DNA of 64,000 bases. It comes from Bugula neritina (Eukaryota > Animalia > Bryozoa). The position numbers and the translations under genes were made by a program. Where the stretch lies: the NCBI GenBank assembly GCA_964035545.1, contig OZ037769.1, positions 16,956,633 through 17,020,632 on the forward strand. The letters run 5' to 3'. The notes under the pieces are model-generated. The model did no database searches. It was not told the DNA's origin and was given only the letters and a program-made list of their open reading frames with translations. Numbering within the stretch: position 1 is the first letter of the stretch; every line of letters starts with the position of its first letter. Shown one piece after another: positions 8,416 through 55,230 of the stretch.

Positions 8416-10297
8416 TGTCTCCCCTGGAACATAAATTAGATTGTCTCTATGGCAGGTTCAGGGGTAAAGCCCTCTGTTGGTGTTCTGCAATACAAGAAGA
8501 TAATGTGTCTCAAGTGCTTGAATAGTAAACCAACATGTCATGTACTTCAAGCAATCTGAACGGTCATGGATTCAAAGCAAATATGAAAATAATGAAATAT
8601 TATCTAAGCAACTTATCAACAAAACAAACTTGGCTAGTTGACAATATATTATGAAGTTAAAAAATTTTCATCAGAGTAAATTAAGCAAAGCCTGAATCTA
8701 TTAATGAGCCAAAATTATGAAATTTATATGATGCAAGTTGTGTATAAGCTTGTGGTTTTAAAAAGATACTCAAAACTAACCTAGTTATTTTACAGTTTAA
8801 TTAATCAATTTACAACATGATAATTACTAATCAATAGGCCTTACACATCTAGAATAAAATGACTTGATTAAAAGTAAATACAACTAAAAAAACACCTGAA
8901 AATTAAATAAATATAGAATATATTATAATCTTAAATCAGTATTAGTATAATACTACTAGTACTAGTAGTACTACTACTAATAGTATTATTTAAAAATAAT
9001 ATCACAATTATTATTAGTAATACTAATAGTTTAATAGTAATACTTAGTATCACTATTATAATTATACTAATACTAATAGTAATAGTAATACTAATAGTAT
9101 TAGTATTACAGTATTACTATTACTATTAGTATTACTATTAGTATTAGTATTACTATTATTACGAATCCCATTTTAACTACACAACGATCATGAAAAATTG
9201 CAAGTATAAATATTATAGATTAAGTATAAGTATTGCTATAGTTATAGTATAAGACTAAAATATTTAGTCTCGTATAGCAATCTTAATCTGAATATTCACC
9301 AACTATCAAGTGAAGATTTGTTTAGTATGTAGCGTTATTATATTGGCAATGCAGTGTCAAGGATTATTCAGAGTTTAAGCGGAAAAGCGTAGGCAAAAAT
9401 AGTAACTGTAGTTTTAATGATTACTTTTTGTTGCAAAACAAATTTCGGACTATTCAAAAGGACGAGGTAACTTTGTCAGACATTCTTTCATTCAATCTCA
9501 TTCTTTTTTGTTAATATAAGTATAAATTTAGTTATTGATAAATGACAAGTGCAACTATAAGTAATTTGACGCTAAGCCTAAAACTAAAAGCAACATGCTT
9601 TGTAGCTTAAATAGTTATTGCACTAAACTTGTCACACCAATAGGTAGACATTTTAAATTGTTTACCCGGAACCACATTCAACTCCATTCATTTTCAAGTT
9701 CCTTTCAGAATCACACCCACTGTCGGTCTCGTGCGCTTGCAGTCGGCGTCGTAAGCAGTTTTGGTCTGGTTCATAACTTAAAGCCTACTAAAAATCTTTA
9801 TGCAAAAACGTGTGTTTCCACTTTCTTATAGTTATTGCCTCGTATTCTGATTCAATCTTATTCTTTGTGCTATCCAGATATTTACAATCATAAAATTAAA
9901 AGTAAATTGTTGTCAAAATGCCTCTGTCAGTATCACTATGCTAGTTTAATAGTGAAATTGCAGTTTAGCATTAAAATACATTGTCACCATATTGCATTGA
10001 GTTTACAAGCTCAGGCTAGAGGTACTCGAGCTACGACACTGATTGAGTTTGATCAAATTAAACCCCATAGGTTTTGGTGGCTATGGAACGAATTTTGAAT
10101 GACTGGCTATTAGGCCTATATTCATATTAGAAAATGATGTTTTGGCATAACTGAGTGCCTTAACCGGTGTAACCTCAGTCAATGAAGTATTTAAGTTCAA
10201 TTAATGAGCAACTTTGAATATACATTCACTGTTTTGCAGCCCGACAAAGCTATTTTCAGCTACTCTCTCTCCTAATCAAACCCGATCACTGAGTACC

Positions 10298-13200: not shown

Positions 13201-13417
13201 CTGCCATTCTATAAAGAGTACTTTGGAATTGCCTACCCGCTGCCCAAAATGGACTTGATCGCTATTGCTGACTTCGCAGCAGGTATTTCCTGTCTTGCAG
13301 CGCCACCTGTACTGTTGTTATATATAGTAGAGGTCATTGTATTGTCTGAATAGTATTGGGATTACATGAAGAGATGCAGCGCTGTTGGCATACGAATAAT
13401 ACATACAATACAATGCT

Positions 13418-13450
<33 letters not shown>

Positions 13451-16400
13451 GTAGTATATGCACAGGTGCGATGGAGAACTGGGGTTTAGTGACGTACCGG
13501 GAGACGGCCCTACTTGTAGACCCCAAGAACTCCGCCTCCTCAGCCAAGCAGAGAGTTGCTCTCGTAGTCGGCCACGAGTTGGCTCACCAGTGGTTCGGTA
13601 ACCTCGTCACCATGGTAGGTTATGAGGTCAAGGTCGTCCTGTCATATATAAGTAGTAGCCTGAGGTCCATACTGTACACTCGGCATATCTTTGTAGGAGT
13701 GGTGGACCCACTTGTGGCTGAACGAAGGGTTTGCCTCGTTCATAGAGTACCTGTGTGTGGACTTCTGCTTCCCGGAGTTTGACATCTGGACTCAGTTCGT
13801 GAAACAAGATCTGGCAGAGGCCCTGGAGCTGGACGCTCTTAGGAACAGTCACCCCATCGAGGTGGGTTATCTCACCTTCTATAGCTGGGATCTCTCACCT
13901 TCTAGATCTGAGTTATCCCACCTTACACAGCTGGGTACTCTCACCTTCTACAGCTGGGTACTCTCACCTTACACAGCTGGGTTCTCCAAGTAAACTCTTC
14001 TCTCTATTCCCAGGTACCTGTCGGCCACCCTGCAGAAGTTGACGAGATATTTGATGCCATTTCCTACTGTAAAGGAGCCTCTGTGATAAGAATGCTTCAC
14101 AGCTGGATCGGTGATGAGGTGAGATAATAAACTGAGGTGAGATAATATACTGAGGTGGGATACTGAGGTGAGGTAATATACTGAGGTGGGATACTGAGGT
14201 GAGGTAATATACTGAGGTGAGATAATATACTGAGGTGAGATAATATACTGAGGTGAGATACTATACTGGGGTGAGATAATATACTGAGGTGAGATAATAT
14301 ACTGAGGTGAGATACTGAGGTGAGATACTATACTGAGGTGAGATAATATACTGAGGTGAGATTATATACTGAGGTGAGATACTGAGGTGAGATAATATAC
14401 TGAGGTGAGATACTATACTGAGGTGAGATACTGAGGTGAGATAATATACTGAGGTGAGATACTGAGGTGAGATAATATACTGAGGTGAGATACTATACTG
14501 AGGTGAGATACTGAGGTGAGATACTATACTGAGGTGAGATACTGAGGTGAGATAATATACTGAGGTGAGATACTATACTGAGGTGAGATAATATACTGAG
14601 GTGAGATAATATACTGAGGTGAGATACTATACTGAGGTGAGATACTATACTGAGGTGAGATAATATACTGAGGTGAGATACTGAGGTGAGATACTGAGGT
14701 GAGATGATATACTGAGGTGAGATACTATACTGAGGTGAGATACTGAGGTGAGATAATATACTGAGGTGAGATACTATACTGAGGTGAGATACTATACTGA
14801 GATGAGATACTGAGGTGAGATACTATACTGAGGTGAGATACTGAGGTGAGATAATATACTGAGGTGAGATACTATACTGAGGTGAGATACTATACTGAGA
14901 TGAGATAATATACTGAGGTGAGATACTGAGGTGAGATACTGAGGTGAGATAATATACTGAGGTGAGATACTGAGGTGAGATACTATACTGAGGTGAGATA
15001 CTATACTGAGGTGAGATACTGAGGTGAGATACTATACTGAGGTGAGATACTGAGGTGAGATAATATACTGAGGTGAGATACTATACTGAGGTGAGATAAT
15101 ATACTGAGGTGAGATAATATACTGAGGTGAGATACTATACTGAGGTGAGATACTGAGGTGAGATAATATACTGAGGTGAGTCACTGAGTCGCTGTGTGTC
15201 GCAGGCGTTCCGGAAAGGTCTCCATCAGTACCTCAACAAGTTTGCCTACAAGAACGCATTCACTGAGGACTTGTGGGAAGCCCTGGTGGAGTCGAGTGGT
15301 AAGCCAGTGGGGGAAGTTATGTCCACCTGGACTAGTCAGATGGGGTACCCCGTCCTGCAGGTGGATGAGAGGAAGGAGGGGGACAAGAGAGTGCTGACTA
15401 TTACTCAGTCCAAGTTCTGTGCTGACGGGAAACCCGCAGGTAATAAAGTAGCTCCATCTTGTAGACGTATGTCGTGGTGTGCGCACAGATGTACACACTA
15501 TATTGTATATTATATAATGTGTAATACTGTATATTGTGTACTGTATAATGTATATTACTGTATAATGTATGATATTGTAGATGGTGAATTCCATTGGATG
15601 GTTCCTATTGACATCATATCTTCTGCTGATCCCACTAAATCCATTTATTCTACTGTCTTGAAAGAGAAGACAACCACTGTAACACTAGAGGGCGTGAAAC
15701 CCTCAGACTGGGTCAAAGTATGTAATTATACTTACTCTACTAGTATTACTATACTTACTCTACTAGTATTACTATACTTACTCTACTAGTATTACTATAC
15801 TTACTCTACTAGTATTACTATACTTACTCTACTAGTATTACTATACTTACTCTACTAGTATTACTATACTTACTCTACTAGTACTACTGTACTTACTCTA
15901 CTAGTATTACTGTACTTACTCTACTAGTATTACTATACTTACTCTACTAGTATTACTATACTTACTCTACTAGTATTACTATACTTACTCTACTAGTACT
16001 ACTGTACTTACTCTACTAGTACTACTATACTTACTCTACTAGTATTACTATACTTACTCTACTAGTATTACTATACTTACTCTACTAGTATTACTGTACT
16101 TATTCTCATATTGCTAATGTCCACAGCTCAACCCCGGCACTGTTGGTGTGTATAGAGTGAGGTACACATCTGAGATGTTGGACAGTATGATACCTTCAGT
16201 GAAGGACCTCAGTCTACCTGCTAGAGACAGACTTGGGCTACAGAATGACCTGTTTGCTCTGGTGAGTTGGTCCACATTGCATTTGTTTACTGATCAGAGA
16301 TTAGTTTGGATCAGCTGAGTTAGTTTCTGCACCCGGGAGTTACCTCCTCTCTTATTGTAGGCTAGGGCAGGGCTGTGCTCCACCGTCGATGTACTGAAGG

Positions 16401-18213
16401 TGGCCGAAGCGTACAGATCTGAGACGGACTACACGGTCTGGTGTGACCTCACTGCTAACCTCTCCGCCATAGCAGTAGTCCTGCAGTACACCGACTGCTT
16501 TGACCTTTTCAGCGCTTTCAAGGTCAACTTGTTTTCCGATGTTGGCAAAAGACTCGGCTGGGAGAAACTGGCCAATGAGAGTGAGTGTCAGAATCAGGAG
16601 AAGACAATTACTATGCTTTATCTGTTTGTATAGTTTCTAGCTGCACCTCTAGACGTAGTATAGTAGACTAAGTCATAGGTGTGTAGGTTAGGACTAAGCA
16701 GTGAACTGTTCATGCAGGTAATAACATAGACTAGCCTGTGTTCTGCAGGTCCCCTTGACTCTATGCTGAGGACACTAGTGTTGGCCCAACTCGGGTCCTC
16801 TGGTCACCCTGAGACAGTCAACGAGGCTACGTCACGGTTTGATCAACATCTGGCAGCGACTAAGACACTCGACGCTGATTTGAGATCTGCGGTAAGTATC
16901 TGTGTGTCACTGTTAGTCACTGTTAGTTACTGTGAGTTGCTGTTAGTCACTGTTAGTTACTGTGAGTTGCTGTTAGTCACTGTGAGTTGCTGTTACTGTT
17001 AGTTACTGTGAGTTGCTGTTAGTCACTCTTAGTTACTGTTAGTCACTCTTAGTTACTGTAAGTTACTGTGAGTTACTGTTAGTCACTGTGAGTTACTGTT
17101 AGTCACTGTGACCATTATATTCACTTCTGCTCTTTGCAGGTCTACAGTGTAGTGATGAAGAGGGGAGATGAATCATACTGTGATAAAATGACAGACGTGA
17201 GTAACATTACCTGTTCACTCTTCTTTCTATTTACCTGTTCACTCTTCTCTCTATTTACCTAGACTACAGTGTACACATCTTGACCTGTTTTCACTCTGCA
17301 TCTATCATCATATTGTTGTGAACCGAGTGTATATAGTATAGTATATACATATACATATACTTGTGTAGTGTATACACTGTGTGTGTGTCCACAGCTATAT
17401 AGAACCAGTGAACTTAGTGAGGAGAAAGTAAGAATATTGCGGGTGCTGGGTCAGACCCCCAACTCTGAAAAGCTGAAGAGTGCTTTGGAGTTTTCCATAT
17501 CTGTAAGTTGACTATCTTATGAAGACAATATACAATGTTACATAGCAGCTCATTGGCTGTTGTATTACCTGCAACATGTATTGTGATGTTCAATTGGTTG
17601 ACCACAATTGTGCTGTTATTTCATTGGCTGATATGTTGGCAGGAGGAAGTGAGGTCACAGGATGCAGTGTTCTGTATCGCTGGGGCAACCAGCTCAGCTC
17701 AAGGTCGTCAGCTGTCGTGGGAGTTCCTGCAGAGCAACTGGACTAAACTCTCCTCCATGTACGAGGGGGGTTTCCTACTCGCCCGACTTGTCAAGATTTG
17801 CACTGAGAACTTTGCTGACCGAAACAAGATCTCAGAGATAAAGGTGTGTAGTCTGTGCTGACCAGGGCTATTGAGATATTAAATTTTAACATACCCGACT
17901 TATTAGCTAATATTTATTAAAAATAGGCTATTTTGTTTAAGGAAAAAACTGTATTTCAAACCAACTCTTAATAATTTGAACATCTGCGTTTATGAAATAC
18001 TGGAAAGACAACTCCTCCAGCTCTCCACTGTAATGTGCTGCCGCTGTTATATGGCTGCTGCTGCCACTGTTGTAGGAGTTCTTTGAGAAGAATCCAGCTC
18101 CTGCTGCAAACCGGGTCATCCAACAATCCTGTGAGAACATCGAGCTAAATGCAGCTCTTTTGGAGAGAGACGGGGACGCAGTGAAGGCGTACCTCTCCGA
18201 ACTTACCAAATAA
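10298..18213 (+). CDS. NPEPPS: Puromycin-sensitive aminopeptidase (M1 zinc metallopeptidase), ~864 aa with exon 4a
   Basis: Exons 10298-10420, 11567-11648, 11756-11826, [12059-12184 OR 12236-12367], 12557-12664, 12790-12984, 13186-13282, 13466-13614, 13697-13861, 14014-14118, 15205-15439, 15581-15717, 16127-16261, 16361-16580, 16749-16891, 17140-17196, 17395-17502, 17643-17843, 18076-18213; all GT-AG with matching phases; motifs [35 protein letters not shown]-x-NEGFA, FDAISY.KG. Confidence 0.95.
11923..12055 (+). repeat. 35-bp intronic tandem repeat abutting exon 4a acceptor
   Basis: Unit gcggagtaatactag(a/t)tggtgtgttatgttgctat, nearly 4 copies. Confidence 0.9.
12059..12184 (+). CDS. NPEPPS: PSA exon 4a (canonical, ends TQFE)
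   Basis: ttatgcag|CAA...TTTGAG|gtacgg; 126 nt, phase 0/0; [42 protein letters not shown]. Confidence 0.93.
12236..12367 (+). CDS. NPEPPS: PSA exon 4b (duplicated alternative exon, ends TMLC)
   Basis: ctttaccttgcag|GCT...TGC|gtgagt; 132 nt, phase 0/0, no stops; [44 protein letters not shown] aligns with exon 4a. Confidence 0.85.
12672..12767 (+). repeat. (TAG)n microsatellite in PSA intron
   Basis: Visible AGT/TAG run right after the donor at 12665. Confidence 0.9.
14115..15180 (+). repeat. 13/18-bp minisatellite containing the host donor TGAG|GTGAGA
   Basis: About 60 units of atactgaggtgag(ataat/atact) fill PSA intron 14119-15204. Confidence 0.97.
15728..16105 (+). repeat. 23-bp intronic minisatellite (ATACTTACTCTACTAGTATTACT)
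   Basis: About 16 copies fill PSA intron 15718-16126. Confidence 0.95.
16905..17110 (+). repeat. Degenerate 10-bp intronic repeat (CTGTTAGTCA/CTGTGAGTTA)
   Basis: Visible array in PSA intron 16892-17139. Confidence 0.9.
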
Positions 18214-18696: not shown

Positions 18697-20146
18697 CTAC
18701 CAGCTTTGCTGTAATTTCTGAAGATGTTCCACTGCATTGTTGCTAATATTGAGAGGTACGAATATAGACTTGAGGTCCGGTTCCCCCATCATTGACAGGC
18801 CAGCTAAACCCATGTAGGAGTGTAACGGGTCGGGGGTTGTAGTTGTCCACTTGCCGAACCCCCCTACCACATTGTCCTGAACTGACAGGAGCCATTTCCT
18901 ATTAGCCGAAGTGTTGACAAACTGAAAAGAGTTAAGTATGCGGAGTGTGGCGCCGATCCAGAAGGAATAGCACGTGTCGACTGGCTTGTTCGGACGTCCC
19001 TGGAACCCCGACTCCTGACGCTTGAGACACCATTGTTTAAGGAGGGACAACTCCACAGGTTTCAGACTGTCTAGTCTATTGAATAAGTAAAGAGCAGCTA
19101 CAGCGCAGAACGTGGAGCCACCGTGAGCTTCTAGGAAGGGGCCCTGCCCAAACCCGCCCTCATAACTCAGACTCGACAGGACATAGTTCACAGCTTTGTC
19201 AACGTTTATAGTAGAGAAGTCATTGAGGATGTAGCAGACACACGCCACGCAGTACAGGAACCTCATGTCATTCTCCGAGCCCTCTATGCAATACTGGAAG
19301 CTGCCGTCTGGCAGCTGTAAACTTGTCAGTCCGTAGGCGAGGGCCTGTCTGTCCACCCGACTCAAGTCATCTCCCAGTATTAGCAGAGAACAGAGGGCTG
19401 TGTAGGTCATGGCCACGTGTCCGTGGTCGTAATATATACAGTCTTTTTGAGGCTGGGTGAAGGAGGCCCCTGTCCACGTTGAACCTCTGAACCCACAGGC
19501 ACTCATGTCTGAAAGTCCATCCTAAAACATCAGAGAGATAAATATACTAAATCAACATATAATAATATATAATATAATAATATATAATATAGATATTAAA
19601 TCAACAAACTGAGTAGAAGGTCTATACACATCTCGACATGCATAGCTGAAAACAACTGGCTCATTACATATAAGAACTTACTCTCTGAGTGGGTAGAACC
19701 TGGAGAGAATAAATCCACTCCACCATTTCAGAACGAGATATCTTGATATCATCCAGTCTGTTTAATAAATCCAAACCGTTTATAGCAAAGAATGACAGCG
19801 TATTTCTGTTAACATCGAGGGAAGAGAACTGAGCAGGTATTACCTGAAACACAACAGCCATCTGGTGTACACTCTTAGGACTAAGGCACTTTGTTACACT
19901 GCTAGTTACAGGTAGACTATATATAACACTGCTAGTTACAGGTAGACTATATATAACACTGCTAGTTACAGGTAGACTATATATCACTGATAGTTACAGG
20001 TAGACTATATATATCACTGCTAGTTACAGGTAGACTATATATATCACTGCTAGTTACAGGTAGACTATATATATCATGTGTATTACCTGTAAAACCCTTT
20101 CAAAATACTTGACATGCTTTTTAACTTTCAATTCCTCTTCTTCCAT
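18697..20146 (-). CDS. PGGT1B: Geranylgeranyltransferase type-I beta subunit, ~348 aa
   Basis: Exons 20146-20087, 19843-19682, 19521-18697; motifs KHVKYF.R.LQ, WIYSLQV, GH.AMTYTAL, ENDMRF.YC, EAHGGSTFCA, GRPNKPVDTCYSFW, DPLHSY.GL. Confidence 0.95.
19895..20076. repeat. 30-bp tandem repeat in PGGT1B intron
   Basis: Unit cactgctagttacaggtagactatatata(a/t), 6 copies. Confidence 0.95.
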
Positions 20147-22860: not shown

Positions 22861-25800
22861 TTAGGTCAGTGCTTTACCCCAGGTGAGGATCTTCCTATCC
22901 GTGTTGTATTCCAGGGCCCTATTCAAAGCGTTCCTCATATCCACCCCTTCGAACCCCCCCTGTACCAGCTCATCGTTGTGTATGTCTATGTTATTGTTAC
23001 ACACAGCCAGTGTTCGTAGTGAGAAGTTGTCATGTGACAGAACTACGAGCATCCTGTGTAGACTGGCCCGGTTGACACTGCAAAGGTTGAGATAGAGCGT
23101 CTGCAACGTGCTGTTCATAACCAACATGTCCGCCAACGCCTCACACCCGTCATCCCCGACAGCATTGTTGCTGAGGTAGAGGGCAGCAAGGGTGTGATTG
23201 TTAGTCAACACTCTAGCCAATGACTGAGCCCCTTCAGAGTGGATGCCACACTGCTCCATGTGTAGCTCCCTCAGTCCGTCGTAATTGTCCAGTATATCAC
23301 AGAAATGCGTCACGCCCTCGTCCCCAATGTCATTGTGACTGATGTCCAGGGCCTGTAGGCTCGTGTTACCCTTCAGCGCTAAAGCTAAGTAGCGACAGCC
23401 GATGTCGGTTATCTGATTGCCTCGCAGGTTCAAAGTTCTGATTGTTTGGTTTCCGTGGAGACCAGCGACCATGGCCTCGCAGTCTTCATCGGAGAGGTCA
23501 TTGTAACTTAGGTCAAGGATCTCTAGAGAAGAGTTCTGAGTTAGAAGACGAGACAGTATCGCACCAGCACCAGTCTGCAAAGAGAAGAGAAGAATATGTA
23601 GAATAATACATCCTTATACAGATAGAGAGATAGCACATCATCTCTTAGTTTCTCACTTATCAAGTTTCACAATACTGAGCACTCACTTTAGTTTATTTTT
23701 TACTTATTATTTCACAATTTATGAGAGAAACAGCTGACGAAGTCTGACTGTAACAATTTGTTATCAACACATCAACACAATTCAAGTGTAGAGTGAAAAC
23801 TTTGGCCCACTGTTCTACATTGCAACAAGATCATATAACATGTCAGTTTTTTCTAACCATAAACTTTTGACAAATTTAAAAAGCTTTGTTGCAGTTCCTT
23901 TGTTGAAGGGGTGACTGATGAGAGAGTTAATGTGATTATACAAAAGCTATGAGGTCAGCGAGATTATACAATTGTGAAAGACTTTCACTTGGAGTGTTGA
24001 ATATGTTATTCACATCAGAATGAGAATATCAAATTCCCTTTATGATTGTTACTGAATAATCATAAGAAGTCAATTCAAATTATCCCAAATAAAGACTTTC
24101 AACTTTTCAACTTTAGTTGAGAGCGGAAGACTTTTTACATTTGTACATTGGTGGGGTGATTAATTTTAAATACTGAACACAAATAATTACACAATAAATT
24201 AAGTTGTATGATAATAGTGCGACTAAAACAATTTTTCCACATTTAGATCAACAAACTGATGGAGTCTGTATAGCTGAAATTACTGAAAGCTGGAAGATGT
24301 TTAAGTGACTCATTTTTAAATCCCTGTTATATATCTCACGACATGCTCACTCTAGTGGCCCTCAAGTACAGGGGCCCACAACTCCACTGTGAACAAGAGT
24401 TATCCGCTCTTACCTGTAGATTAGTGTGACACAGTATCAGCTCTCGTATCGACCCATTCCTCTCCATAGCCTTAGCTAATATGTCAAAGCCTTCGTTCTC
24501 TATGGGGTTTAACCTGAGATTTAGCTTCTCTAGGCATCGGTTTCCTTCAATACCAAAGACTAGCTTTGAAATACCCTTAGAACTGAGTCTATTCTTGCCG
24601 AGATTGAGCTGAGAGATGACGTTGTATTTACGCAGAACTTCGCCAAGTGCGGCACAACTCGAGTTGCCGAAGTTTTCGTCGTACACCTCTAGAAGCAAGA
24701 TAGGCTGCATTCCATCCAACGTGTCACCAATGAGGTCGGGCTGGTCCAGCAGCACCCGAGGTCGATGTTGCTGCACAGTACAGTGTTTAGTAGTCAGAGA
24801 AAAGTTCCACTTGTTAGCCTTAGCTCCTATAATGAACACATCATTCAGTGTTTCCAGCAGATTGCTAATTAGCCTCTGGTCTTCGTGGACCCGAAGTATT
24901 TCCCTCAGTCTGTCAAACCACCCGTCCCCGTGTTCGAGAATACGGTCTACAATCAGCTGACTCGACTCTCTCTGACTGCACATGCTCAGGTTTAGTGCCT
25001 CCATTTCTGCCTCATTCACAAGAGACTCATTCACGAAACACTCCCACACGCGGTCGGGTTTCAGCCGATCCACGAGCACATCCTGAGACAGACACATAAT
25101 CTGCCATGACCTGTAAACACAACAGCAGCATTAGTTTGCTGACTCTGAGGTCAAAGGGCGCAAAACTCTGAGTAAATTTTATAAATGCCAAATTTTATAC
25201 CCGAAAAGCATTGAAATGCTTCCGTCCAAGTTTGACTAACAAAAAGCTATTCTGTAAAGTATTCTAGTAACAGAATAACACGTGTTTATCATGCAGGCCT
25301 TTAGGGTGTGAATAACACGGAGAATTAGTAAACAAGAGTGCAGCAGAAGGCGAGTGCCAGAGTCGTATGCTACTGTGACTCAACGTTGCCACTTCCTATT
25401 GTAAACAGTTGATTCAACTCCAATTCATCAATTAGTTGCCGGAAAGGAAAATAATGTTGAAACTGATTTACATAAACAATAAATAAAGTTATGTGACAGG
25501 AATGTCATAGCGAGAGGCTGCCATGTGATGTTCTAGAGATACTGTTTGAGCTAAATTCACCTCATTCTGGCAGCGTAGAGATTCTGGTACAGGTCGTCAG
25601 CGTCTTCTTCTGCCTCGCTGATATGCACCGACGTTGTGTCTCCTATTTTCTCTAGAGACAGGGCCTTTCGCACTTCATCCCATAATTCCATCACTTCCTG
25701 AATAACAAAATAATTGAACTCGTGCTAAACTGCTGTAGATACTCGTGCTAAACTGCTGTAGGTACTCGTGCTAAACTGCTGTAGGTACTCGTGCTAAACT

Positions 25801-28800
25801 GCTGTAGGTACTAGCGATATTTCAGTCACAGTTCTTACTAAATAAAACCAATCTGTTGTCAGCCTCTTTTTAATAAGAACTTTATTAAATAACGAGAAGT
25901 GAGAAAATGTCCATCAATCAAGACAAACTAACTCTCAGTTTAAATGCAAATTAAAATTGTCAGTCATTCCTGTGTAATGACCAAGTGTCTATTATTCCTG
26001 ACTTTCAAGTCAACTTTATTATGTATTATTTATTGATTCAAAAGTTAAAATCAATACTTCAAGTTGAATGGATAAATACTGAAGGTTAGATTATATATAG
26101 CCTCTCAGCCTCACCTCAGTTGTGTGGGAAATCCTCTTTGGTAAAGTGGAAGCTTTGTAGGAATAATTACGAGGGGGCTTCTTAGGCCCCTTCTTCACGA
26201 CCGCAGTAGAGACCTGAGGCTCCACAGCCTGAGATTTACAGCATGGATCTGCGGGTGGGAGGCTACAGCCCTCGCTGTTGAGTCCCAAGTCTGTGAATAC
26301 TACTTTCCTCGGTGGAGGGGATTTGGCAGCTGACTCGATGGAGGAATTGTCAGCAATCTGCAATTTGAGAAATGAGCATCTAGACAGACGAACAGACAGA
26401 CAGACAGACTAATAGACTGACCAAAAAACAACTGGCCAGTTAAATCTCAAGATCCATAGGTCTAAATGAGTTGTTGTTGAAACAAATATCGCTCACCAGT
26501 GAAAAGAATACAACAACAGAATATAGCTGTTGAATTTTTAAAGCCTTTATTGAACTCGGTACATTTGTACTTGGGCCGGAGTTTTACCTGTTCAGGTGAA
26601 ATATTGCGGGGAAGAGACAGGTGACTAGGTTTAGGCGGCAGTTTAGGTGACTCCATATTGAAACTCTCCTCTAGACAATGAGCTCTAGAGGAATTCCTCC
26701 TGAATGTTGGTGGAGTGACCTCTTCCTGGGGGATCACCTCTGCGGAACTCACTGAAATACACGGAACTCTCTAGAATACACAGAACTTGCCAACTAATTT
26801 AACTCCGAGTGACATTAGCAAGGCCTGTTTACTACCACCTGACAGATAAATTAAAATCCCATTAAATGATCACCTACACTAAAACATGCTCCAAGACATC
26901 AATGATACGATACGATATACATGTGACTGGTATATGATATGATACGATACGATACATGATATGTAATACATGTATACGATACGGAACACTTATTTAGACA
27001 CCAGCTTTAAATGTTTCACAAAAAATACTTAAATTTCATGACATGAAATATCGGCAGTATAAATATTCTCAGAATCTTACCAGAGACAAAGCTGTGACTC
27101 CCGTCTTCACTGTTGGGGGGCATATCAGGGGGCAAAGGAGGGAGCGGAAACATAAATGGTTTAATATTAACATAGCAGCTGTCTTTCGAATTTCTAGTCG
27201 AAGATTGGTCGGATATAGTGGCGGTGATGGGACTAGAAGATGTGGCAGCAATGGGACTACAGGATGTGGCAGCAATGGGACTGGGAGTGATTGGAATGGT
27301 CACCTGAAAGCAGACGACAAATTTGAGCAAATCTAAACATCTCCAAATCCTAACTGATGATATATTCTATACATTGTGATAAACTTTACTACTCAAATCT
27401 ATACTAAAGTTAAAATCCAACATTCTATATGTTTTATGCAATGATAAACAAGTTGCAGTAGACACAAAGCAGCTGGAGCGTACCATTGGTGGGCTGTTGC
27501 TGTGAAGCTGTGACATTCGAAATGCCGTCTCAAAAGTGAAAACTTCTGACTTATCGTTGTTGTTGGTCGGTTTGGGAGAGGAGGGGTTACTTTCATTCAG
27601 ACTTCGCCGAGAAAACCGCCTCTGTCTGGCCATGTGAGCCGCTTCTATCGGTAAGACGTCCGGCGCAACTGTGCGCTCTAGCGTGTCATCTCCGGGGATC
27701 TCCGTCACAAATTTACCTTCAAAATCAGAGAGTAAATGTTACACTCCTGTGGCTGACTGTCACAATGGCAAGAAGTTATTTACCTGTCAGCTTATCAGAG
27801 TAACTCTACCTGACATTTAATGTTGTAATTCATTACCACACAGCTATAAAAGAATGCTGCCAATTTTATATTGTATTCTCTGAAAGGCAGCATGCAAATC
27901 TCAATTATATATTCAATATCAACGAAATATGTTGAGCTGGCAGGTAGAGAACAAGGAAACATGCCATATCATATACCACAGGGTGAGAAGTAGTGTTTAT
28001 TCATGGCTTGTATTTGTTTATTTCATTTCTATAGTCTTAAAAAACTCCCACAGAAATTGAAGTCTAAAACAATTGTATGAAGTTAGAGAGAGCCTGTCAC
28101 AATTCTGTTAATTAACATGTCATAACTAAAGAAATTGAGCTGCCAGTGAGGCCATTATAAGGCAGCATAGAATTTCCCTTCAGTGTCATCCAGCAGTGAC
28201 TCATCTTACAGCTGCCGACAGACACAAAGTACTACACAATCAACATGGAATCTAATTACATTCTAGCACATGACTCTATCCTAAATAATATTCATAAACA
28301 TACCCTCTGAGACATCTATGGGAAAATGTTCTTTGAGATGTACTTTAAACATAACGTGTGGCTTAGAAGTTGTTCGACAAAACCAAAAGCTGTTTCAATA
28401 TTTATTGAGTTCTATTCATGTTGTGAATCACTGGACAGAAATGTTTAAATGTGTGTATAGTTATTACATGTAGACCATTCTACTAAAATGGGGGGTAACA
28501 TAATATAGTAATTATTCCTACAGCTGAATCAAATAATGTAGTGGCAACTTTTGAATAACAATCAATATGATTACAAACATCTGCTATCAGAGATTGAATT
28601 AATCAAACTATGAATGAAATTCCTAGGCATAGTTGTTATTGAACTTTTGATTTCTATTAAAAGCTACTCAATCACTTTCAGTTAGACGAAGTGCACTCAT
28701 GTAAACACGCGGGCTGAGGGCAACGAAATTAGGGGCTAGCAGTCGTTCTGAGTACGGGAATTTCGCAACGAGTGAGTGACGTATGCTACTACTACTACAA

Positions 28801-31800
28801 AGACTATGACGAGTAACTGAGGGGTGAACCGACCGACCGCAAAGTTATCTATCTTAGTAGTCTATGGAGAGGTGATTGCTGATGCATGGTGTGATTGTTG
28901 ACTGAAGTGACTATTGCAAGGGATTAATGTTTATTGTAAACATTATTGTTAGCTGTTGATAACAGATTATCAGTGTATTGTTTACCTACGTCATACTATG
29001 TCATAATAACCACAAAAAACTAGAAATATCGGCACATCTAAGACAGAAGACATCAATAAGAAGTTGCTATGCCAAACAAGTATTTCCTTCACCAAACCCT
29101 TGACTCCCGCATATAATTATTATACAGTGTGGGGCCAGATATAAACAATAGCCCGATGTTTCATACACTAAAACCATCTCAAGAACAAAACTATAGCTTA
29201 AACAGCTAGCAGAAGACAGGTTTAGCAGAAGACAGCATAGCTACAGTTAAACTGAGTTCTTAGAACTAAATCATCAACTCAGCTGGTTAACTTCTAATTC
29301 ATTTGACCGCAAGTAAAGTTATCCCCCTTTCTGAAAAAAGCATTGTTTTAACTTTGACTTGGACTACCCTAGCGCATGTGACTTAGCTAAGGAACTTAGC
29401 GCAGAAACAGAGCTAAGAAATAAACAGGGGGGTAACTTCATTTCAACACCTGCTAGATAGAATGAATTAACTTCCGCTAGCTTTAGGAAAAGTGAAGTCT
29501 TTCAGTGAACTATAGCATATCAGTGACATTAGATTCTTAAGTTATTGTAGAAAGACTGCGTAGGATGACTTTGATGTGGACCGCTAGTCCCATAGCCGCG
29601 ATTTGTGTTCCCCGATGTCATGCAATATCACACAATTATAAAGGAGAGGGCTGGTGCGTATTGTGTGCTCAACAAAGAGTGTATAAACATGGCATTGTGT
29701 TGCACTACCTATTATATATATAGTATTTGAGAGTGGAAGGCAAAGACAGCTGTTAGCTATCAAACTGTCCTGAAATGTGCATGTAATCATGGCCTTATTG
29801 TAGCAGGTCAACTTTGTGCCTGTTTCATATCTGAAATCAAAATAAATTAAGTGTGTCACGTGACTATTGTTAGTAGCTCATCAACAAGTGGGCTGATGCT
29901 GCCAGCTTCGGCAGCCAAGTTTTTATGGGAGATTTTAAAGGCAATAAAATCAATTTTGTTTGGCTTTCGAAACTTTCATGTTACATAAATGGGATTACAT
30001 AATCGGATTTTGTAACATTTTATGTTAGGATTAAACGTGCTTTCTTCATTTCAACAGTGTCTAGTTTCTCTGTTTAAAGTTATATACAGTAAATAGCTTA
30101 AGATCCATGAAAACTTTAGCCGAGGTGCGGATGGGGAGCTGCTATTAGCAGTCCCAAATTTGTACATTTTTATTCTCAATCAATCATACATTACATGGTG
30201 AAATATTTTATGCATGTAAATTGTCAAAATAATGAGAGAACTGAAGAGTCAATGAAATAATAATTGGTGATAAGCTGCAGGCCTGGCTCTCGGACTAGAT
30301 AAGGCAATACTTGGAATAGCTGCTCCATTCAGCTGGCAGTAGATGAGTGATTTGATTAGCGGGATTTTGACACCAATGAAGATAAGGAATAGTATATCTG
30401 TATAGCATTGCATACATCATACTGTATACTGTATAATAATACTTGATATAAATATTATATGTAATATTCTAGTGAATTAGAATAATTTAGCTTAGGATTT
30501 AGTGAAATGATAGTAAAAATTAGTCAAATGCTAGATGTAAGGCTAGTATACAGCAAGTCCCACAGGCTATACAGCAAGTACCACGGGCTATACAGCTACT
30601 GCTAGTATACAGTACCACAGGCTCTACAGCTACTCCTAGTATACAGTATCACAGGCTGTACAGCTACTCCTAGTATACAGTATCACAGGCTGTACAGCTA
30701 GTACCACAGGCTGTACAGCTACTGCTAGTATACAGTACCACAGACTAGTGTATATTGCCACGATACTATAATGAAGTTGGGTCAACACTCTGCAAGATGG
30801 AGATTTTCTAATCCCGGAGGCATTCATAAGGTGGTTCAATGACTGACTTGAGAGAGAGTTTAATGAGATTCGGTCACCATAATTATATTTATATTATACT
30901 TTCTAAGGTATCACGTGAACTTCTGAGGGTTATATTAGTGGTCTGGTAATAACCTGGCTTAGTAACATAATGTAATGTAAACCCTTTAGTCCTGGTCAGC
31001 ACAATATATAATATTACTGCTCAGGAACAGACAGACTATAATTGGCTTGAAACTATGAATATAGACGCTGTCTGGAAAATACTTGATGGGAGAGGGAAAA
31101 GAAAAATATCGGAATTATGTATATGATAGGATATAATAGATTCTATTTGACATCGTATTTGAATTGTATTTCGTATAATATTATATTACAATGTGTATTA
31201 TTTTCTATTTACAACTTATAGGTTTTATCTGTTACAATATAAACAATACAGTTTGCAACTGGTTGCTATACAACTCAGGGGATAAGGGAGAAGCTATAGC
31301 TGTAACATAACCCGTGATTACCTCAACTTATGAAAGGGATAGTACTAATTCCAACACTTAAATGCCAGCTTTTTCAGACAGCATCTCAAATGTCAGCCAA
31401 GGGTTCTCCTTTTCTAACATTGATGTTAATCTCAAGTAGTGGCTAATTTACTACCTCCAATTAAAAAGAGCTTAGCTAATGCAAACTTTTCTGAAAACCT
31501 TCTTTACAGAAAAACTTGTTGGCAAAAAATGTTATGAGTGAAACCAAAAATCAGTGAAATTGATAAACTTTTGACAGTAAATCATTTACCAACCCTCGAC
31601 GAGTATAACTCATGTTGATATAGCACTTCATCCGAAGATGGGGGGAAACCTAAAGCCACAAGTCATAAAACCAGGGATGTAAAATTAATTTAAGTTCAAA
31701 GAAAAAACTATAATCTATATTGAAAGTAGATTAAAGGCGTGTAACTAACACAGCTGGAGTTCCATAGCTACTGGGACCCGGATTAAGCCTTCTATGTGAT

Positions 31801-33240
31801 ATATTACAATAATCTATGTTTTACAGCTGGTTGGCAATCTGTAGGGTCCATTTGCATATGACATCTTTGAGGGGACAAAAAACGGCAAGAAAAGAGTATT
31901 TGCATTACGTATACTGATGACAAAGTTCCATTTGTGTCATTATGTAGGTTTAGTATTTCAGGAGGACGTTAAGAAATAGTGTTGGAGGTGTATTGTCGTA
32001 GTAACAGCATCTCCACTTTGGCTGTGTCAATATTTGTAAGGGATTTGCTTACTTTAAGAATTTATAGCAAACAGCTTTTACTGAATTAATGCATAGCTTG
32101 GGACAACTCCCTTTACTCAGTATCACTCATACCAGTTATTACTACTATTACTAGTAACTCTCACTAGTAACTATTACTAATAACTATCACTAGTGACTAT
32201 GACTAGTCACTCTCACTAGTAATTATCACTAGTAAGTCTCACTAGTGACTATGACTAGTAACATCACTAGTCACTCTCACTAGTAACTCTCACTAGTAAC
32301 TATCACTAGTGACCATGACTAGTAACTATGATTAGCAACTACCACTAGTAACTATTATTAGTAACTCTCACTAGTAACTCCCACTAGTTATGTCAGATTA
32401 GTTGGGATGTATTGAAACTGATAAACATGCCAATGACATGAACTCTTATGCAACAAAACAACAAATCTCGTCACAAGATGTTTTGAACTCAATGAATCCT
32501 GACAATAATAAACATTTACCAGAGGAAATGTAGATGCTTACAAGCAAACTATTTTAAATATACTGAAACTGTAGAAATATACTGAAACTGTAGAAATATA
32601 CTGAAACTGTAGAAATACTGGAACTGTAGAAATACTGGAACTGTAGAAAGAGGGGTTGGGTTGGTAGAATGTGATGAGTAATGGCTAGGCTGTTTTTCAA
32701 GTGATATCAAACTAAGGTGAAGGTGAGGTCTGCCAACACCAACATACTACTCTATAGTCATTAATTCACACTGGAGTCTTGAGGTGCGAGTTATGTGTGA
32801 TTTTGGCAGCTTTAGAAAGTACTTTGCCCGACACTCAACTTTTCCTAATTAGCATGATTACCCCTTCCTTGCTGAACACTCTCCACCCCCTCTCTCTCCT
32901 TGACACTTCCTCCACCCACCCCCTCCCGTGCACACACTCTCCATCCTCCTTCCTTGACACTCTCGCCACCCCCTCCTTTTTTCATACTTTCTCCACCCCT
33001 CTGCACACTCCAAAACAAGAAGTAATGCGACAAAACCCCCAAAGTTGAAAAATCTCCCTTGTCACTATCATAGACAAGACATCACTACCAGTGTTACTTA
33101 TTATTAATTTCAGAGCACATAAAACAAATAGTATTTAGACTAGTGTACTCACAATCTTTCTTTTCTGCCATATTGCTCTTGTACTTGCTGCTAGAGCGAC
33201 CAGCTGAGTTTCCACTTGCACAATTCAGTGAGTTTCCCAT
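22861..33240 (-). CDS. ~832-aa protein: MGNS..C N-terminus, Pro/Ser-rich low-complexity region, CARD-like death-fold domain, RI-like (NLRC3-type) LRRs, no NACHT
   Basis: Exons 33240-33153, 27716-27484, 27303-27081, 26751-26588, 26357-26115, 25697-25561, 25110-24414, 23574-22861 join in frame (2499 nt, GT-AG). 28-aa LRRs (L..N..L..L.Ls.N.I.d.G...La..L) are clear; CARD call and first exon are inferred. Confidence 0.75.
25728..25812. repeat. 23-bp intronic tandem repeat
   Basis: actcgtgctaaactgctgtag(g/a)t x4, from about 25718. Confidence 0.85.
30543..30750. repeat. Degenerate ~34-bp tandem repeat
   Basis: tagtatacagta(c/t)cacaggctgtacagctact(c/g)c units. Confidence 0.85.
32138..32390. repeat. 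Degenerate 13-bp repeat (ACTAGTAACTCTC)
   Basis: Visible array. Confidence 0.85.
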
Positions 33241-35464
33241 TGTTTGAAGAGGAGTCTTAAGACATGGGAAATTCAGTTGCAATATTCAGAGTGAGTGAGT
33301 GTGACTCACTTAGAACTACACTGACTAGTTACAAGAATATTGATTCCAGTCAGTTGATATTCTTGAAATAAATTACTTTTCAGAGTTGGAATGCTGCGCT
33401 ATTAGTCATTAGTTTAATCCGGCAGCTTATTCTCTGGCAGCAGTAACAGGTTCTAGCGATAAATCCTTGTAAACGGCTTGGGTGTAATACTAGTTTATAT
33501 TATTATTATTGTAGATGCAACGCACGCCTCGCAATCATAATCACCGACTCTTTCGTCGTCTGCAGAGCAATCTTAGCGCCTACAACAAAGGATGCGTGAT
33601 GCATACGTGCATAATGATTATATTGTTATTACTTTGACTCTAAAAATAATGCCACACAAGAAAAGGCAAACTATGGAATTATACCATAACAATGCGACCA
33701 CAATTAGGCCATTTAAATTAATTGTATTTGTTCAATGTTTGATAGAAAGGGGAGAGAACAATGGTCATACAGCTTTTTATACCAAAATGGTTATTGTATT
33801 TCAAATTGTAATTAAAACGAATGCTAATAACAACCATAATGCTAAAGCAACGTTCAAAATTTTAACATAAAGGTACTTACTTTTGTAGCTCGTTGAAAAT
33901 TCTTGTAAATCTTGTCTTCTAGTAAAAATTTCAAAGGATAAGTATTTGGCGTAGATCTTACAACTGCTAGTCGCATAAATGAATGTGTAGGTATTTGATC
34001 ATATTATTGTAATGTTTTGATCGTTGATCAACACGTGTTTGGGTCGTTGTAGATTGGTTAACTGATATCACGTGACCATAACAAATACTTGGCTATGATA
34101 ATTATGATACGCTACAAGACACTATTAATATTAATACAGCAAATGACTCACGCACGAGGACATATAAATCATGCATGATCAAATTATTATTTTATATTAG
34201 AAGCACTATTTATAGTGTAATATCGTAATAGTCTAATTGAGGGCGGTTGCAACACGAAATATAATATCTTCAACAGATCAGGGATTGTGCACTGCAGTGC
34301 GTCGAGCCTTGCAATTTACTTAGCAAGCAAAAATAAAACATATTTTAATTATGCATCTTGAAAACAATGACAATGTGGTTGTTTTGTAATATATAATTAC
34401 ATAAACAAACTTATGCAGCTGGTTATGGATTGACTGCATTTTGATAGTGCAAAGATATTAAATATTTATTCTATTATATTATGCTTGCTATTACATGCTG
34501 CATAACATTTAGCATGTATGCTATATACTACATTTTTGTATGTGTTGGAAGTACTTTATGTATAAATATTACATCAATTATACACAGTATCAGAGTATAC
34601 ACAACTCCAAAATTTATAGATAAGTTAAAATTCATTTGGGTAATGATATTATTGTAACTAATATTGAAGGGGAAAATACTTATGTATTGAATTGGTTTTG
34701 CTTCTATTGCTGTAATTTTATAGTTACACTCAAAATTCACATACTTACAACTCTAACTATAGTTCATTAGCACAAACTAGGCTTTAATAATATTATATAC
34801 ACATCCTATCTTCTTGGTAAAAGTTTATATGCTATAAATGCAGTTGCAGCAATTTGCGCTTTTTCCATTATAACATATAATGAGATTTACACATTTAATA
34901 TTATATAGAACATATATTATAATAGAATGCATATTATTACATATATCCTATTATTTCCTGATGAAAGTTGTGCACCAAACAGCAGATGACATGATAATAT
35001 GGGTGTCATCAAAACTATAGCGTATCCAGAGTTAGGTGCAGTGTAGACTGAGTGTGCCAGTATCGTATATTACTTGACTTTATACACAAGTGTAAATGTG
35101 GTAACGCAGTACATTATCATATAGAACTAAGGCTAAAGGTTAAACCATTTGCTTGTGATGATACTATACCAGCAGATGTGTTACTTCGGTTCAACTAAGT
35201 ACCACCAAACTATTAATTTAACATTTTTGTGTCTTGTAGTTTTTAAAATGAATACTTGTACATTTTACATGCTTTACACAATTTATATATAATACACGCC
35301 CACATTATCTAGTGCAGTGTTTAGTCACAGTACCCTGTGATGTGTTAAGTGGGAGTTGATACGTGGTAACGCTATTTATTGCTATTACATGGTATAAATG
35401 TGCTTTATATATTAACATGTATTGTAATAAATCATCACAGCTCTGTTATTCCATGGGTGTATTT

Positions 35465-40174: not shown

Positions 40175-41871
40175 CTATTCGCCCATGGTGGCCATCGCAT
40201 CAGCTATGTGTGACTGTACGGTTTGCGTGAGTACAGTGTGCACATCCCTACACCCCTTCATCCCCATCTCTATTACCTTCGGTACGTGATCTTCATGTAG
40301 TCTGCCATTGATCTGTAGGAACACAATCTGCTCTGTCTTGGGTAATATTGCCATCACAATCTACAGAGATCAAGGTAGCTGATTGATTGGTTAATAGCAT
40401 AATATATATTAGTATACTATTGATTGGTCAATTAATAGAGAGTATGCTATTGTGTAGCTTCTGGAATAGGAACGTATGCCAGTGACTACCTAATAAGTAC
40501 GGCTGAGGAACCTGTATTGGGCCAATAAGAAGCCAGCCTACGCTGACTGAAGGGGTAATATGGCATCTTTAGTCTGGTCTTCGGCAATACATTATCTGGT
40601 TGATGATGATTAAACACCTACTCATAGCAACAGTCTCGAGAGATAAAATATACAGAAGGGACGGCCTACCTCGGTGCCAGCGTGCGTCTCCTCCAAGTGG
40701 TTGATGTCAACGACAGCAGTTTCCTTCATAAAGCTGGCGGAGCAGGCACACACGATGTCTTTCATGGGGATACCGGCATCAATAAGAGCCAGAGTGGCAG
40801 CATTGATTGACGCACAGTAGTTACCCCCGTCTGACTGCAACACCTGTAGCATGTAACAATGTAGAGAATAGAATACACACATGTACTGCCACAACACTAG
40901 TACCACAACAGAGACACTATGTACTGTAACAATAATGTCCCTATTTGGGTATGCTGCGTAGTATAATACCATAACTGTAATACCGCTACAGTACTGAAGC
41001 TATGTTATAACCACAATGTAAAAGCAAGATATAAATAAGTCTACAGCAAAACAATATAGCTACAATAATATTAGTGAGTTAATATTGAATACTGCTTAGT
41101 TTTAAAAAGTGGATCACCTCAACGAATATGTCTATCTGAGATTTGGGGTACAACTGAGTCAAAATGGCCGCTTCAAACGTCTGCTGCATGTGCAAAGTCA
41201 TCTCTATAGACTTACGGTCACCGCGTGGACGCCTTTTCCTCTCTCCTGAAAGCAAGAGTTTAGTCGGATATAAAGTATAACAACACTCAAAAAGCAGATG
41301 CGTCAACAGAATAATTTTAACAAACCTGTGCTGAATGTGGCCATACTGTACTGACAGTTGACTAGTACTCGGTCATGTAGTGCTTTACTCTTAGCTCCAG
41401 TCACCTGAAATTATACAGTAACTTGTATCAAACACAGAAACAAACTTTCTGGTTATTGATTTAATATAAATATTTGGCAGTTTTAACTAATAATTGATAT
41501 CAAAAATGTTTTGAAATACAAGTAGGCCTAACTTCCAAAAATTATCATAAATACCAAACTGAAAACTTGTGTAGCAAGCAATTTACAATCATGTAAGAAA
41601 CATCTGTATGGTTAATTGTAGAGGTCATCTATTTATACCTATATTCTAAATTACAGAATACAAAGCTACAGCTAAACACAGAGAGTTCAGTCCAGCTAAC
41701 CTCATGGGGCCCGTATACAGTTGCCAAGACTTTAGTGTTCCCCTGTTCAATGTAAGCTGAACCGTCGGCCTGAGTGAAGACACCCAGTCGACAGGATAAC
41801 TTCCTGAGTTCAGTCGGTCTTCTGCCGTCCATTCTCAGACCCTGATCAGATAACATTGTCATCCCCGCCAT
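40175..41871 (-). CDS. EXOSC4: Exosome complex component RRP41, 245 aa
   Basis: Exons 41871-41701, 41404-41326, 41245-41118, 40843-40670, 40360-40175; motifs GLR.DGRR..ELR, ADGSAYIEQGNTKVLA.VYGPHE, SQIDIFVEVLQ.DGG, INAATLALIDAGIPM. Confidence 0.96.
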
Positions 41872-43168
41872 GTTGATTTCTCTTCTCTGTGAATAGTAAG
41901 AACAGACTAAAGTATTACATTTTTGTATGATAGAACTATTTGTATTTTTATTAGAAAAGCATGATACATATGTATAAAGTAAATTTCATATTATAAAAAA
42001 CTACATGAATTGGCAACTTTTCTTACATCCAGCAGTACTACTACTAGTAGCAGTACTAGTTCTACATAACGTTCACTAAACTCTGATTTCACTTTAAATT
42101 TGAGCATCCTAATCTGTAGCCATAACCATAATATTAATAACAATCACAATAAGTAATACTAATAATAATTTTAGTATGAGTATCAGATTCCTTCTCAGTA
42201 TCAGTATCACTACCAGGATGACACTACGAGTATCAGTATGAGTAGGGCTATCATGATCATCATCATGGTTATCATTATTAATATTATTATTATAATGATT
42301 GTCATTGTGCCTATGATACTGACAATCATAATGATAATCTAATAGTAATAATTATTTACATTGATGAAAAAATTCATATCGATTATCATCACCATTATGA
42401 CTCTCAGTATCAGACTCAGTAGCAGACTAATCACTAAATCTAATAAGCAATAATAATCATAATCAGTATGAGCATCACTTAATTACTGTTAACTTGATGA
42501 GGATCAATAAATCATAGTGATCATCGTAATAATAATCATTATGATTATGCTATTGATTATCCTGATTTGTTATATTTATAATCATAATGATTAAATTAAA
42601 ATTTGTTACCGCTCCGAAAATCATAAATACTAAGTACTGAGATTCAGAGTGAATACCTGTACTGGGCAGTGGATACATCATACAACACGAAAATCATGCA
42701 AATAATCATAATGAAATATCAGTTCAGCTTCGTAATCGTTTACATGAATTGTAATTTAAAAAACAGTTATTGAATGATTATGATAATAATACTTTTACCG
42801 TTTACGTGACAGAGTATTGGTTGAAAGTTGAAACTGTGCTTCAACTATTATAAAGCTCACTAACGCTTAATACCACTACAATGTTGAAGTGACTTTCATA
42901 AAATCTATACGAAAAATAAATAAATCACGCCGACTTTCATAAGCTTTTACCTTGGCCTTGTCTTGGCCCTAAGAGTCATGGAATTTCCAGCATGATTATA
43001 ATCTATAATAACTATTTTTTGACCTTCTAAACTCTGATAAATGTAAATAAATTATTTATAAATTTTTTATAAATTAAAAAAAACAATTTTTAAAGTAATA
43101 ATTATAAAAACATAACTAAAATTTGAAAAAAGCTTTTTTTTAAAGACTCACGTCACATTACCATCAAA

Positions 43169-49355
<6,187 letters not shown>

Positions 49356-55186: not shown

Positions 55187-55230
<44 letters not shown>

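Follow-up and report, generated by a model that had tools for sequence, protein, structure and literature searches.

A CARD-LRR protein family without a NACHT domain, conserved between bryozoans and a brachiopod

Introduction

The window analysed here, a 64-kb stretch of intron-rich animal DNA from the bryozoan Bugula neritina, carries on its minus strand a gene whose product joins a predicted CARD to ribonuclease-inhibitor-type (RI-type) leucine-rich repeats (LRRs) in a single chain. The NLRC group of NOD-like receptors (NLRs), comprising NOD1, NOD2, NLRC4 and the invertebrate CARD-NACHT-LRR proteins, likewise places a CARD ahead of RI-type LRRs, and its CARDs and LRRs both appear near the top of the fold matches reported below. 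The window protein differs in having no NACHT, Walker A motif, winged helix or HD2 domain, in carrying its CARD internally, behind a motif-rich tail of 360 residues, in its predicted N-myristoylation, and in being low-copy and conserved. The locus raises the question of whether such a protein is real and, if so, what could take the place of the NACHT switch. The analysis shows a protein family that is real, conserved and, it appears, not yet described; it is built of known parts and is a variant of the death-fold/LRR adaptors. With evenly divided confidence, we read it as a membrane-tethered signalling scaffold in which clustering at the membrane would substitute for the NACHT switch.

Surveys of invertebrate NLRs take NACHT as their starting point, as seen in the available parts of 10.1101/2025.07.21.665930 and PMC9334734, and a CARD-LRR protein without NACHT is therefore invisible to them. 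Public records obscure the family further through a wrong first exon, a frameshift, fused copies and uninformative names. We found no characterised family with this layout and no description of the architecture in the full-text literature, although supplementary domain tables or subscription papers could list one; the available parts of PMC8662601, PMC11508797, PMC4794898, PMC10752898, PMC11874512, PMC4346834, PMC9334734 and 10.1101/2025.07.21.665930 do not describe it. The portion of PMC11508797 at hand is contradictory on NLRs in Ectoprocta (absent in one place, present in another) and was not used on that point.

Gene structure and splicing

Rebuilt from the sequence, the gene comprises eight coding exons (33240-22861, minus strand) that encode an 832-aa protein in a single frame with one terminal stop. 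All seven introns have GT..AG ends, and a stop codon lies in frame 5' of the start ATG. Two public proteins from cheilostome bryozoans are close to the product: a second B. neritina record (P0003, KAF6036206), 96% identical, and an 824-aa protein from Watersipora subatra (P0001, XP_067929191), 63% identical. The features of the gene are as follows, with L001-L005 denoting further copies.

33578-33241, minus: 5' untranslated region (UTR) part of the first coding exon; an intron (33879-33579) links it to an upstream non-coding exon
33240-33153, minus: exon 1, coding; ATG at 33240, Gly2, Cys7, then a weakly basic stretch
33240-33153, minus: putative lipidation site in exon 1, N-myristoylation of Gly2 and S-acylation of Cys7 predicted from the motif
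27716-27484, minus: exon 2, aa 30-107; part of the tail, its conserved islands including FxFExAF[RK]xSQL at 27540-27505
27303-27081, minus: exon 3, aa 108-181; CYVNIKP (27177-27157, YxN type) and PLPPLPP (27147-27127), kept in P0001 and L001
26751-26588, minus: exon 4, aa 182-236; SH3 class II-type motif SPKLPP[KR]P at 26653-26627, retained by P0001 and L001
26357-26115, minus: exon 5, aa 237-317; at 26309-26295 a loose motif of RVxF type, at 26186-26124 PxKPPR..Y..KRIS, the most conserved island of the tail
25697-25561, minus: exon 6, aa 318-363; a helix, conserved and probably amphipathic (25697-25650), and an acidic run
25589-25575, minus: YQNLY in exon 6; the exon 6 features are kept in P0001 and L001-L004
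25110-24414, minus: exon 7; CARD, 37-aa linker and LRR1-4
25106-24819, minus: CARD, aa 365-460; six helices, the sixth long, from Pfam, model and fold matches
24818-24708, minus: CARD-to-LRR linker, 37 aa, inside exon 7; a predicted strand, no NACHT, no intron
24707-22984, minus: eleven RI-type LRRs, aa 498-792, interrupted by an intron (24413-23575)
23574-22861, minus: exon 8; remaining LRRs and cap
22983-22861, minus: C-terminal cap with a terminal L[TL]WG motif and the stop codon; motif also in P0001, L001, L005 and Lingula

Fourteen sequencing runs cover part of the stretch, and eight were examined: seven that we presume to be RNA, no run being recorded as such, and one that is DNA-like (X14). 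All seven coding introns are supported as joints in contigs of the presumed RNA runs, which come from near relatives; seven of seven are found in each of X4, X8, X10 and X12, six in X2, five in X3 and four in X1, against none of the seven in X14. The junction 33153>27716, proposed by a sequence-only reading of this DNA, occurs in contigs from five of the seven presumed RNA runs (X2, X4, X8, X10, X12; three studies) and was not seen in X14, and we accordingly reject the idea that exon 1 is joined by a chance junction. Joined across it, the exons form one frame of 832 aa containing every motif which that reading had named, so that its gene model stood. The 5' UTR joint (33578-33880) is present in contigs of X2, X8, X3, X12 and X10, and a single 2963-base contig of X10 traverses every exon without room for an additional one. 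The contigs, which carry no expression level, diverge from the window sequence at about 5% of positions (32 of 695 letters in exon 7), and the splicing is therefore that of a close relative rather than of the window's own stock.

The 5' leader also holds a two-codon upstream open reading frame (Met-Ser-stop, 33265-33257, minus strand), ending 16 bases 5' of the start codon, together with two further upstream ATGs. In P0003 the first 47 residues derive from a stretch of intron 1 (30413-30273, minus strand), and the record hence has no Gly2; this alternative first exon was rejected because no joint to it occurs in the examined runs.

A predicted CARD and its modelled packing on the LRRs

The helical domain ahead of the LRRs spans about 96 residues (365-460) and is modelled as a six-helix CARD; the earlier call of a CARD-like segment thus holds, although its length had been put at about 85 residues. 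The model of exon 7 was built from a 10-row alignment (a single-sequence model reached a predicted local distance difference test score, pLDDT, of only 35) and has a mean pLDDT of 81.7, with 82-91 per helix block, and a predicted template modelling score (pTM) of 0.81; the six helices are followed by the linker strand and then the LRRs. When this model was compared with 48,161 solved chains, the helical bundle was aligned by 25 of the best 50 rows. Twenty-three of these are titled CARDs or CARD-bearing apoptosome proteins, and none of the 25 is titled DD, DED or PYD. The matches include the CARDs of NOD1 (Z 11.1, root-mean-square deviation (rmsd) 3.2, 84 residues aligned), caspase-1 (Z 10.5, rmsd 2.2, 84 aligned), ARC (Z 10.3, rmsd 1.8, 75 aligned), NLRC4 (Z 10.2, rmsd 2.1, 82 aligned) and Apaf-1 (Z 9.7, rmsd 1.7, 84 aligned).

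Profile matches agree with the fold. The window segment matches Pfam CARD_2 (E 1.5e-4, 22.1 bits, below the cut-off of 28.2), whereas two relatives, P0006 (26.0 bits) and L002 (24.8), exceed the Pfam CARD cut-off of 23.9, and a Lingula anatina protein (P0008) reaches E 6e-12 (45.8 bits summed over two copies). By sequence, the nearest solved CARDs are, weakly, those of Apaf-1 (E 0.08) and caspase-9 (E 0.35). The family agreement of the fold matches and the profile matches point the same way, namely that residues 365-460 would form a CARD. Foldseek returned nothing at E 0.001 from the PDB and viral libraries, its lists being dominated by LRRs, and the Atlas yielded generic LRR clusters only, below 0.9.

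Alignment of the LRR rows in the fold comparison sets in at model residues 79-98, within the sixth helix; together with the high pTM, this suggests packing of that long helix against the first repeat, and CARD and LRRs are predicted to form a compact unit. A more distant copy (L005:323-426) carries one additional intron, about 100 bases long, within the CARD and none between CARD and LRR.

ARC (NOL3) is a protein of 208 aa without LRRs, its CARD lying directly after the lipid site. On the model of mammalian ARC and the CARD-only proteins, the window protein might be a lipid-anchored inhibitor or NLR decoy that sequesters the CARDs of caspases or NLRs at the membrane, an explanation that we regard as unlikely. 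ARC is a close fold match with a low-complexity region and, according to the part of PMC10752898 available, is N-myristoylated; the human protein is as such a precedent for a myristoylated CARD protein. Without NACHT the window protein would have no known means of self-nucleating a CARD assembly, and Lingula possesses CARD-NACHT-LRR proteins as possible targets (PMC11508797, as far as available). The fold scores of ARC, NOD1, caspase-1 and NLRC4, however, tie within 1 Z, and such an inhibitor gains no preference from them.

The linker and the missing NACHT

The linker between CARD and LRRs is 37 aa long with a predicted strand, not the gap of about 50 aa in the sequence-only reading, which was right that neither Walker A nor NACHT lies there. 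The Walker A pattern GxxxxGK[ST] is absent from the window protein, P0001, P0003 and P0008, and there is no NACHT Pfam match on the last three; the window linker matches no Pfam family at E 0.05, and no winged helix or HD2, and NCBIfam gave no relevant match. Because CARD, linker and the first four repeats share one exon, splicing cannot insert a NACHT exon between CARD and repeats, and a hidden NACHT exon was rejected on this ground and on that of the full-length X10 contig, which has no extra exon. The window protein is not an NLR: it has the death fold and the RI-type LRRs of one, but not the NACHT and winged helix/HD2. The Lingula linker is about 80 aa longer than the bryozoan one and matches no NACHT-associated family, showing just one unrelated sub-threshold match. 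The want of any NACHT-associated remnant in either linker speaks against an NLR decoy, as does the finding that the LRRs resemble ribonuclease inhibitor at least as closely as they do NLR LRRs.

The LRRs comprise ten regular 28-aa repeats and one capping repeat; their RI type had been recognised from the start, but the count is eleven rather than about a dozen. An LRR profile scores ribonuclease inhibitor at 185 bits and NLRP14 at 184, with axonemal LRR proteins scoring comparably, so that descent from an NLR by NACHT loss is neither shown nor excluded. The RI-type scaffolds ribonuclease inhibitor, LRRC34, RanGAP and CARMIL have the same 28-residue repeats and profile scores at least as high as those of NLRs. 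PPP1R37 is another RI-type LRR scaffold, and we know of none among these five that carries a CARD.

PIDD1 combines LRRs and a death fold in one chain without NACHT; it is a caspase-activating scaffold that self-cleaves and has the order LRR-ZU5-ZU5-UPA-death domain. In the window protein, by contrast, the death fold is a CARD ahead of the LRRs, and P0001, P0003 and P0008 match neither ZU5 nor UPA nor a C-terminal death domain family, the protein terminating with the LRR cap.

The RI-type repeats also bear on the idea of a scaffold outside immunity, such as a subunit that targets protein phosphatase 1 (PP1) to membranes or an RI-type LRR protein of the cytoskeleton or cilia, in which the CARD-like bundle would serve mainly as an LRR cap. 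We judge this improbable. It would fit the profile that rates ribonuclease inhibitor and axonemal LRR proteins as high as NLRPs, and LRR alignments that start within the sixth helix; yet the bryozoan CARD (78% identical between the window and Watersipora) is at least as conserved as the LRR (68%), beyond what a cap would need.

A conserved N-terminus and docking motifs

The tail, 362 aa long, had been described as some 350 aa of low-complexity sequence with proline and tyrosine motifs. The motifs are there, but strongly conserved islands set the tail apart from plain low-complexity sequence. Identity to Watersipora is 100% over residues 1-10, 39% over 11-145, 67% around YVNI/PLPP, 79% at PKLPP, 87% over 289-318 and 80% over 319-362. 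Within otherwise variable sequence, the window protein, Watersipora and L001 all retain YVNIKP, PLPP, PKLPP[KR]P, PxKPPR..KRIS and YQNLY, and residues 289-318, the PxKPPR..Y..KRIS island, are still 40% identical to Lingula, whose tail carries PPKPPRLYVN, KKRIS and YENI and thus retains PxKPPR followed by a tyrosine and KRIS. The start MG-x4/5-C is conserved as Gly2 with Cys7 or Cys8 (Lingula retains Gly2, Ser6 and Cys8), and a general myristoylation pattern fits the window protein, P0001 and P0002. A simple decoy would leave such a 360-aa tail with several conserved docking motifs unexplained.

Known binding partners are Grb2-type SH2 domains for YxN and SH3 domains for PxxPx[RK] and PxxxPR; [RK]RxS sites are of the PKA type. 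In the window protein YxN occurs twice against 0.33 expected (p 0.035), PxxPx[RK] twice against 0.5 (p 0.09) and [RK]RxS three times (p 0.002). As these short motifs are singly weak or only modestly above chance, it is their conservation in orthologues that counts as real evidence. The islands FxFExAFxxSQL (27540-27505) and EVMELWDEVRKA (25697-25650), both on the minus strand, matched no known motif and could be binding helices.

At one aligned place, a loose RVxF motif in three spellings is shared by every bryozoan-type sequence with coverage there, five in number (window, P0002, Watersipora, L001 and L002), as a PP1-targeting scaffold would have it. Such a motif nevertheless occurs at random in about 25% of proteins (PMC4794898, available part), a match arises in 13-19% of tail shuffles, and the Lingula tail has none, its single one lying at the C-terminus. 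Since no copy here fits the strict consensus, we treat RVxF as a lead only towards a possible PP1-docking site.

Relatives, selection and genomic setting

A search with residues 364-537 among 1.84 billion representatives yielded seven matches at E 0.001; in four of them (P0006, P0007, P0002, P0008) the CARD or linker was matched, in the other three only the LRR. P0008 (L. anatina XP_013395180), from a brachiopod, consists of two near-identical copies, each with CARD and LRRs and without NACHT. Its LRRs score 194-204 bits against the bryozoan proteins, as the family does among itself, and no more than 119 against the other proteins among the 51 compared; the repeat number is equal, with one single-residue gap, and the L[TL]WG end is shared. 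On these LRR scores, repeat number and terminus, we take P0008 as an orthologue of the window protein. The layout is thus conserved across two phyla. The P0008 record fuses tandem gene copies, the second without the N-terminal Gly, probably through a missed first exon.

Further bryozoan-like copies lie on five metagenome contigs (5 of 388 candidate stretches), of which L001 holds exons 2-8 with the intron phases of the window gene. P0002, on another Bugula contig, has the correct start and a frameshift within the CARD. All four named public records are labelled "uncharacterized" or "hypothetical"; one has a different first exon, one the CARD frameshift and one the two fused copies. When Lingula residues 120-520 were used for a word search of 30-845-aa proteins, the single match was a plant LRR protein and the known 824-aa Watersipora orthologue was missed, which marks the sensitivity of this search as low. 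A profile search, restricted to proteins of 1022-2915 aa, returned Lingula and generic LRR and NLR proteins. Nine proteins of 1495-1603 aa (P0041, P0043-P0046, P0048-P0051) have an unusual NLR layout of NACHT, fibronectin type III and LRR, with a CARD in six.

The gene is present once within the 64-kb window. Between the window, L001 and L002-L004, exon 7 has a nonsynonymous divergence (dN) of 0.18-0.21 with synonymous sites saturated. Over nine of the eleven repeats, with position classes chosen by us, LRR identity to Watersipora is 34/36 on the concave face and 49/90 on the convex (p 5e-6), and to L001 26/36 and 46/90 (p 0.024). Low copy number, purifying selection and, in bryozoans, a conserved concave face fit a scaffold for a host protein better than a variable pathogen sensor.

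These data bear most directly on a further alternative, a cytosolic pattern-recognition receptor whose LRRs would sense a microbial ligand directly and whose CARD would signal without a nucleotide switch. CARD and RI-type LRRs are the input/output pair of NOD1, NOD2 and NLRC4, both parts being among the fold matches, and a sensor of an invariant ligand would still be compatible with the data. A low-copy gene under purifying selection with a nearly invariant concave face in bryozoans is, however, the opposite of the expanded, diversifying receptors of invertebrates, of which the oyster Toll-like receptor expansions are an example (PMC4346834, available part), and we consider this receptor highly unlikely.

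The gene sits among housekeeping genes, a neighbourhood that would also suit a non-immune scaffold. The neighbours, assigned by Pfam unless stated, are listed below; introns are rich in short tandem repeats.

7426-8457: TPT-family (nucleotide-sugar transporter-type) gene
12000-18000: M1 aminopeptidase
18697-20000: prenyltransferase beta subunit
40600-42000: RNase PH protein
43200-49300: short-chain dehydrogenase
52400-56000: carboxypeptidase, from a reading of the open reading frames

Discussion

We envision the scaffold as follows. Fatty acylation of Gly2 and Cys7 would hold the protein on a membrane, where the tail would recruit SH3 and SH2 proteins in a kinase-controlled manner and the LRRs would bind a fixed host protein. 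Clustering through the SH3 and SH2 partners would replace ATP-driven oligomerisation, and the clustered CARD would be presented to a CARD partner, either an initiator caspase or an adaptor CARD. Lipidation, phosphorylation, all partners and the direction of the signal we infer from motifs and general knowledge. Lipid-anchored docking proteins such as FRS2, PAG/Cbp and LAT offer a parallel: they are acylated at the N-terminus and place YxN and proline-rich docking motifs in a disordered region, but carry a PTB domain or transmembrane helix rather than a CARD-LRR unit. Of the roles first proposed for the window protein, the membrane-tethered adaptor gains from the conserved N-terminus and motifs, whereas a sensor or NLR decoy finds no positive support, the gene being conserved and low-copy rather than expanded.

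Several observations weigh against the scaffold. The CARDs of the window protein, P0001 and P0003 fall below the Pfam cut-off or go undetected, with no Pfam CARD match at all on P0001, and the bundle Z-scores of 10-11 fall short of the value of about 13 that the tool sets for helical bundles. The long sixth helix, if packed on the LRRs as modelled, could mask the CARD interface. Lingula has Asp3 and fails the myristoylation pattern, and its two YxN motifs are out of register with the bryozoan ones. In the available part of PMC10752898, NOL3 is myristoylated yet not selectively mitochondrial, so that myristate alone does not fix location. The concave-face excess is weakened by our choice of position classes and by the drift of convex helix surfaces in many LRRs, and it is not seen against Lingula (11/36 versus 26/90, p 0.51).

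A broader proposal, which we find somewhat unlikely, is that of an ancient lophotrochozoan platform, inherited from the bryozoan-brachiopod ancestor, in which lipid anchoring and clustering driven by tyrosine kinases or SH3 domains would replace the NACHT ATPase and couple membrane receptor signalling directly to CARD-caspase assembly. This would be a third nucleation route beside the NLR/apoptosome wheels and the death and Toll receptors.

Conservation between two phyla sets the CARD-LRR layout apart from most shuffled immune architectures. If the scaffold model is true, membrane clustering together with phosphorylation could switch a CARD in place of nucleotide exchange, and the family would tie caspase control in lophotrochozoans to kinase signalling in a defined way.

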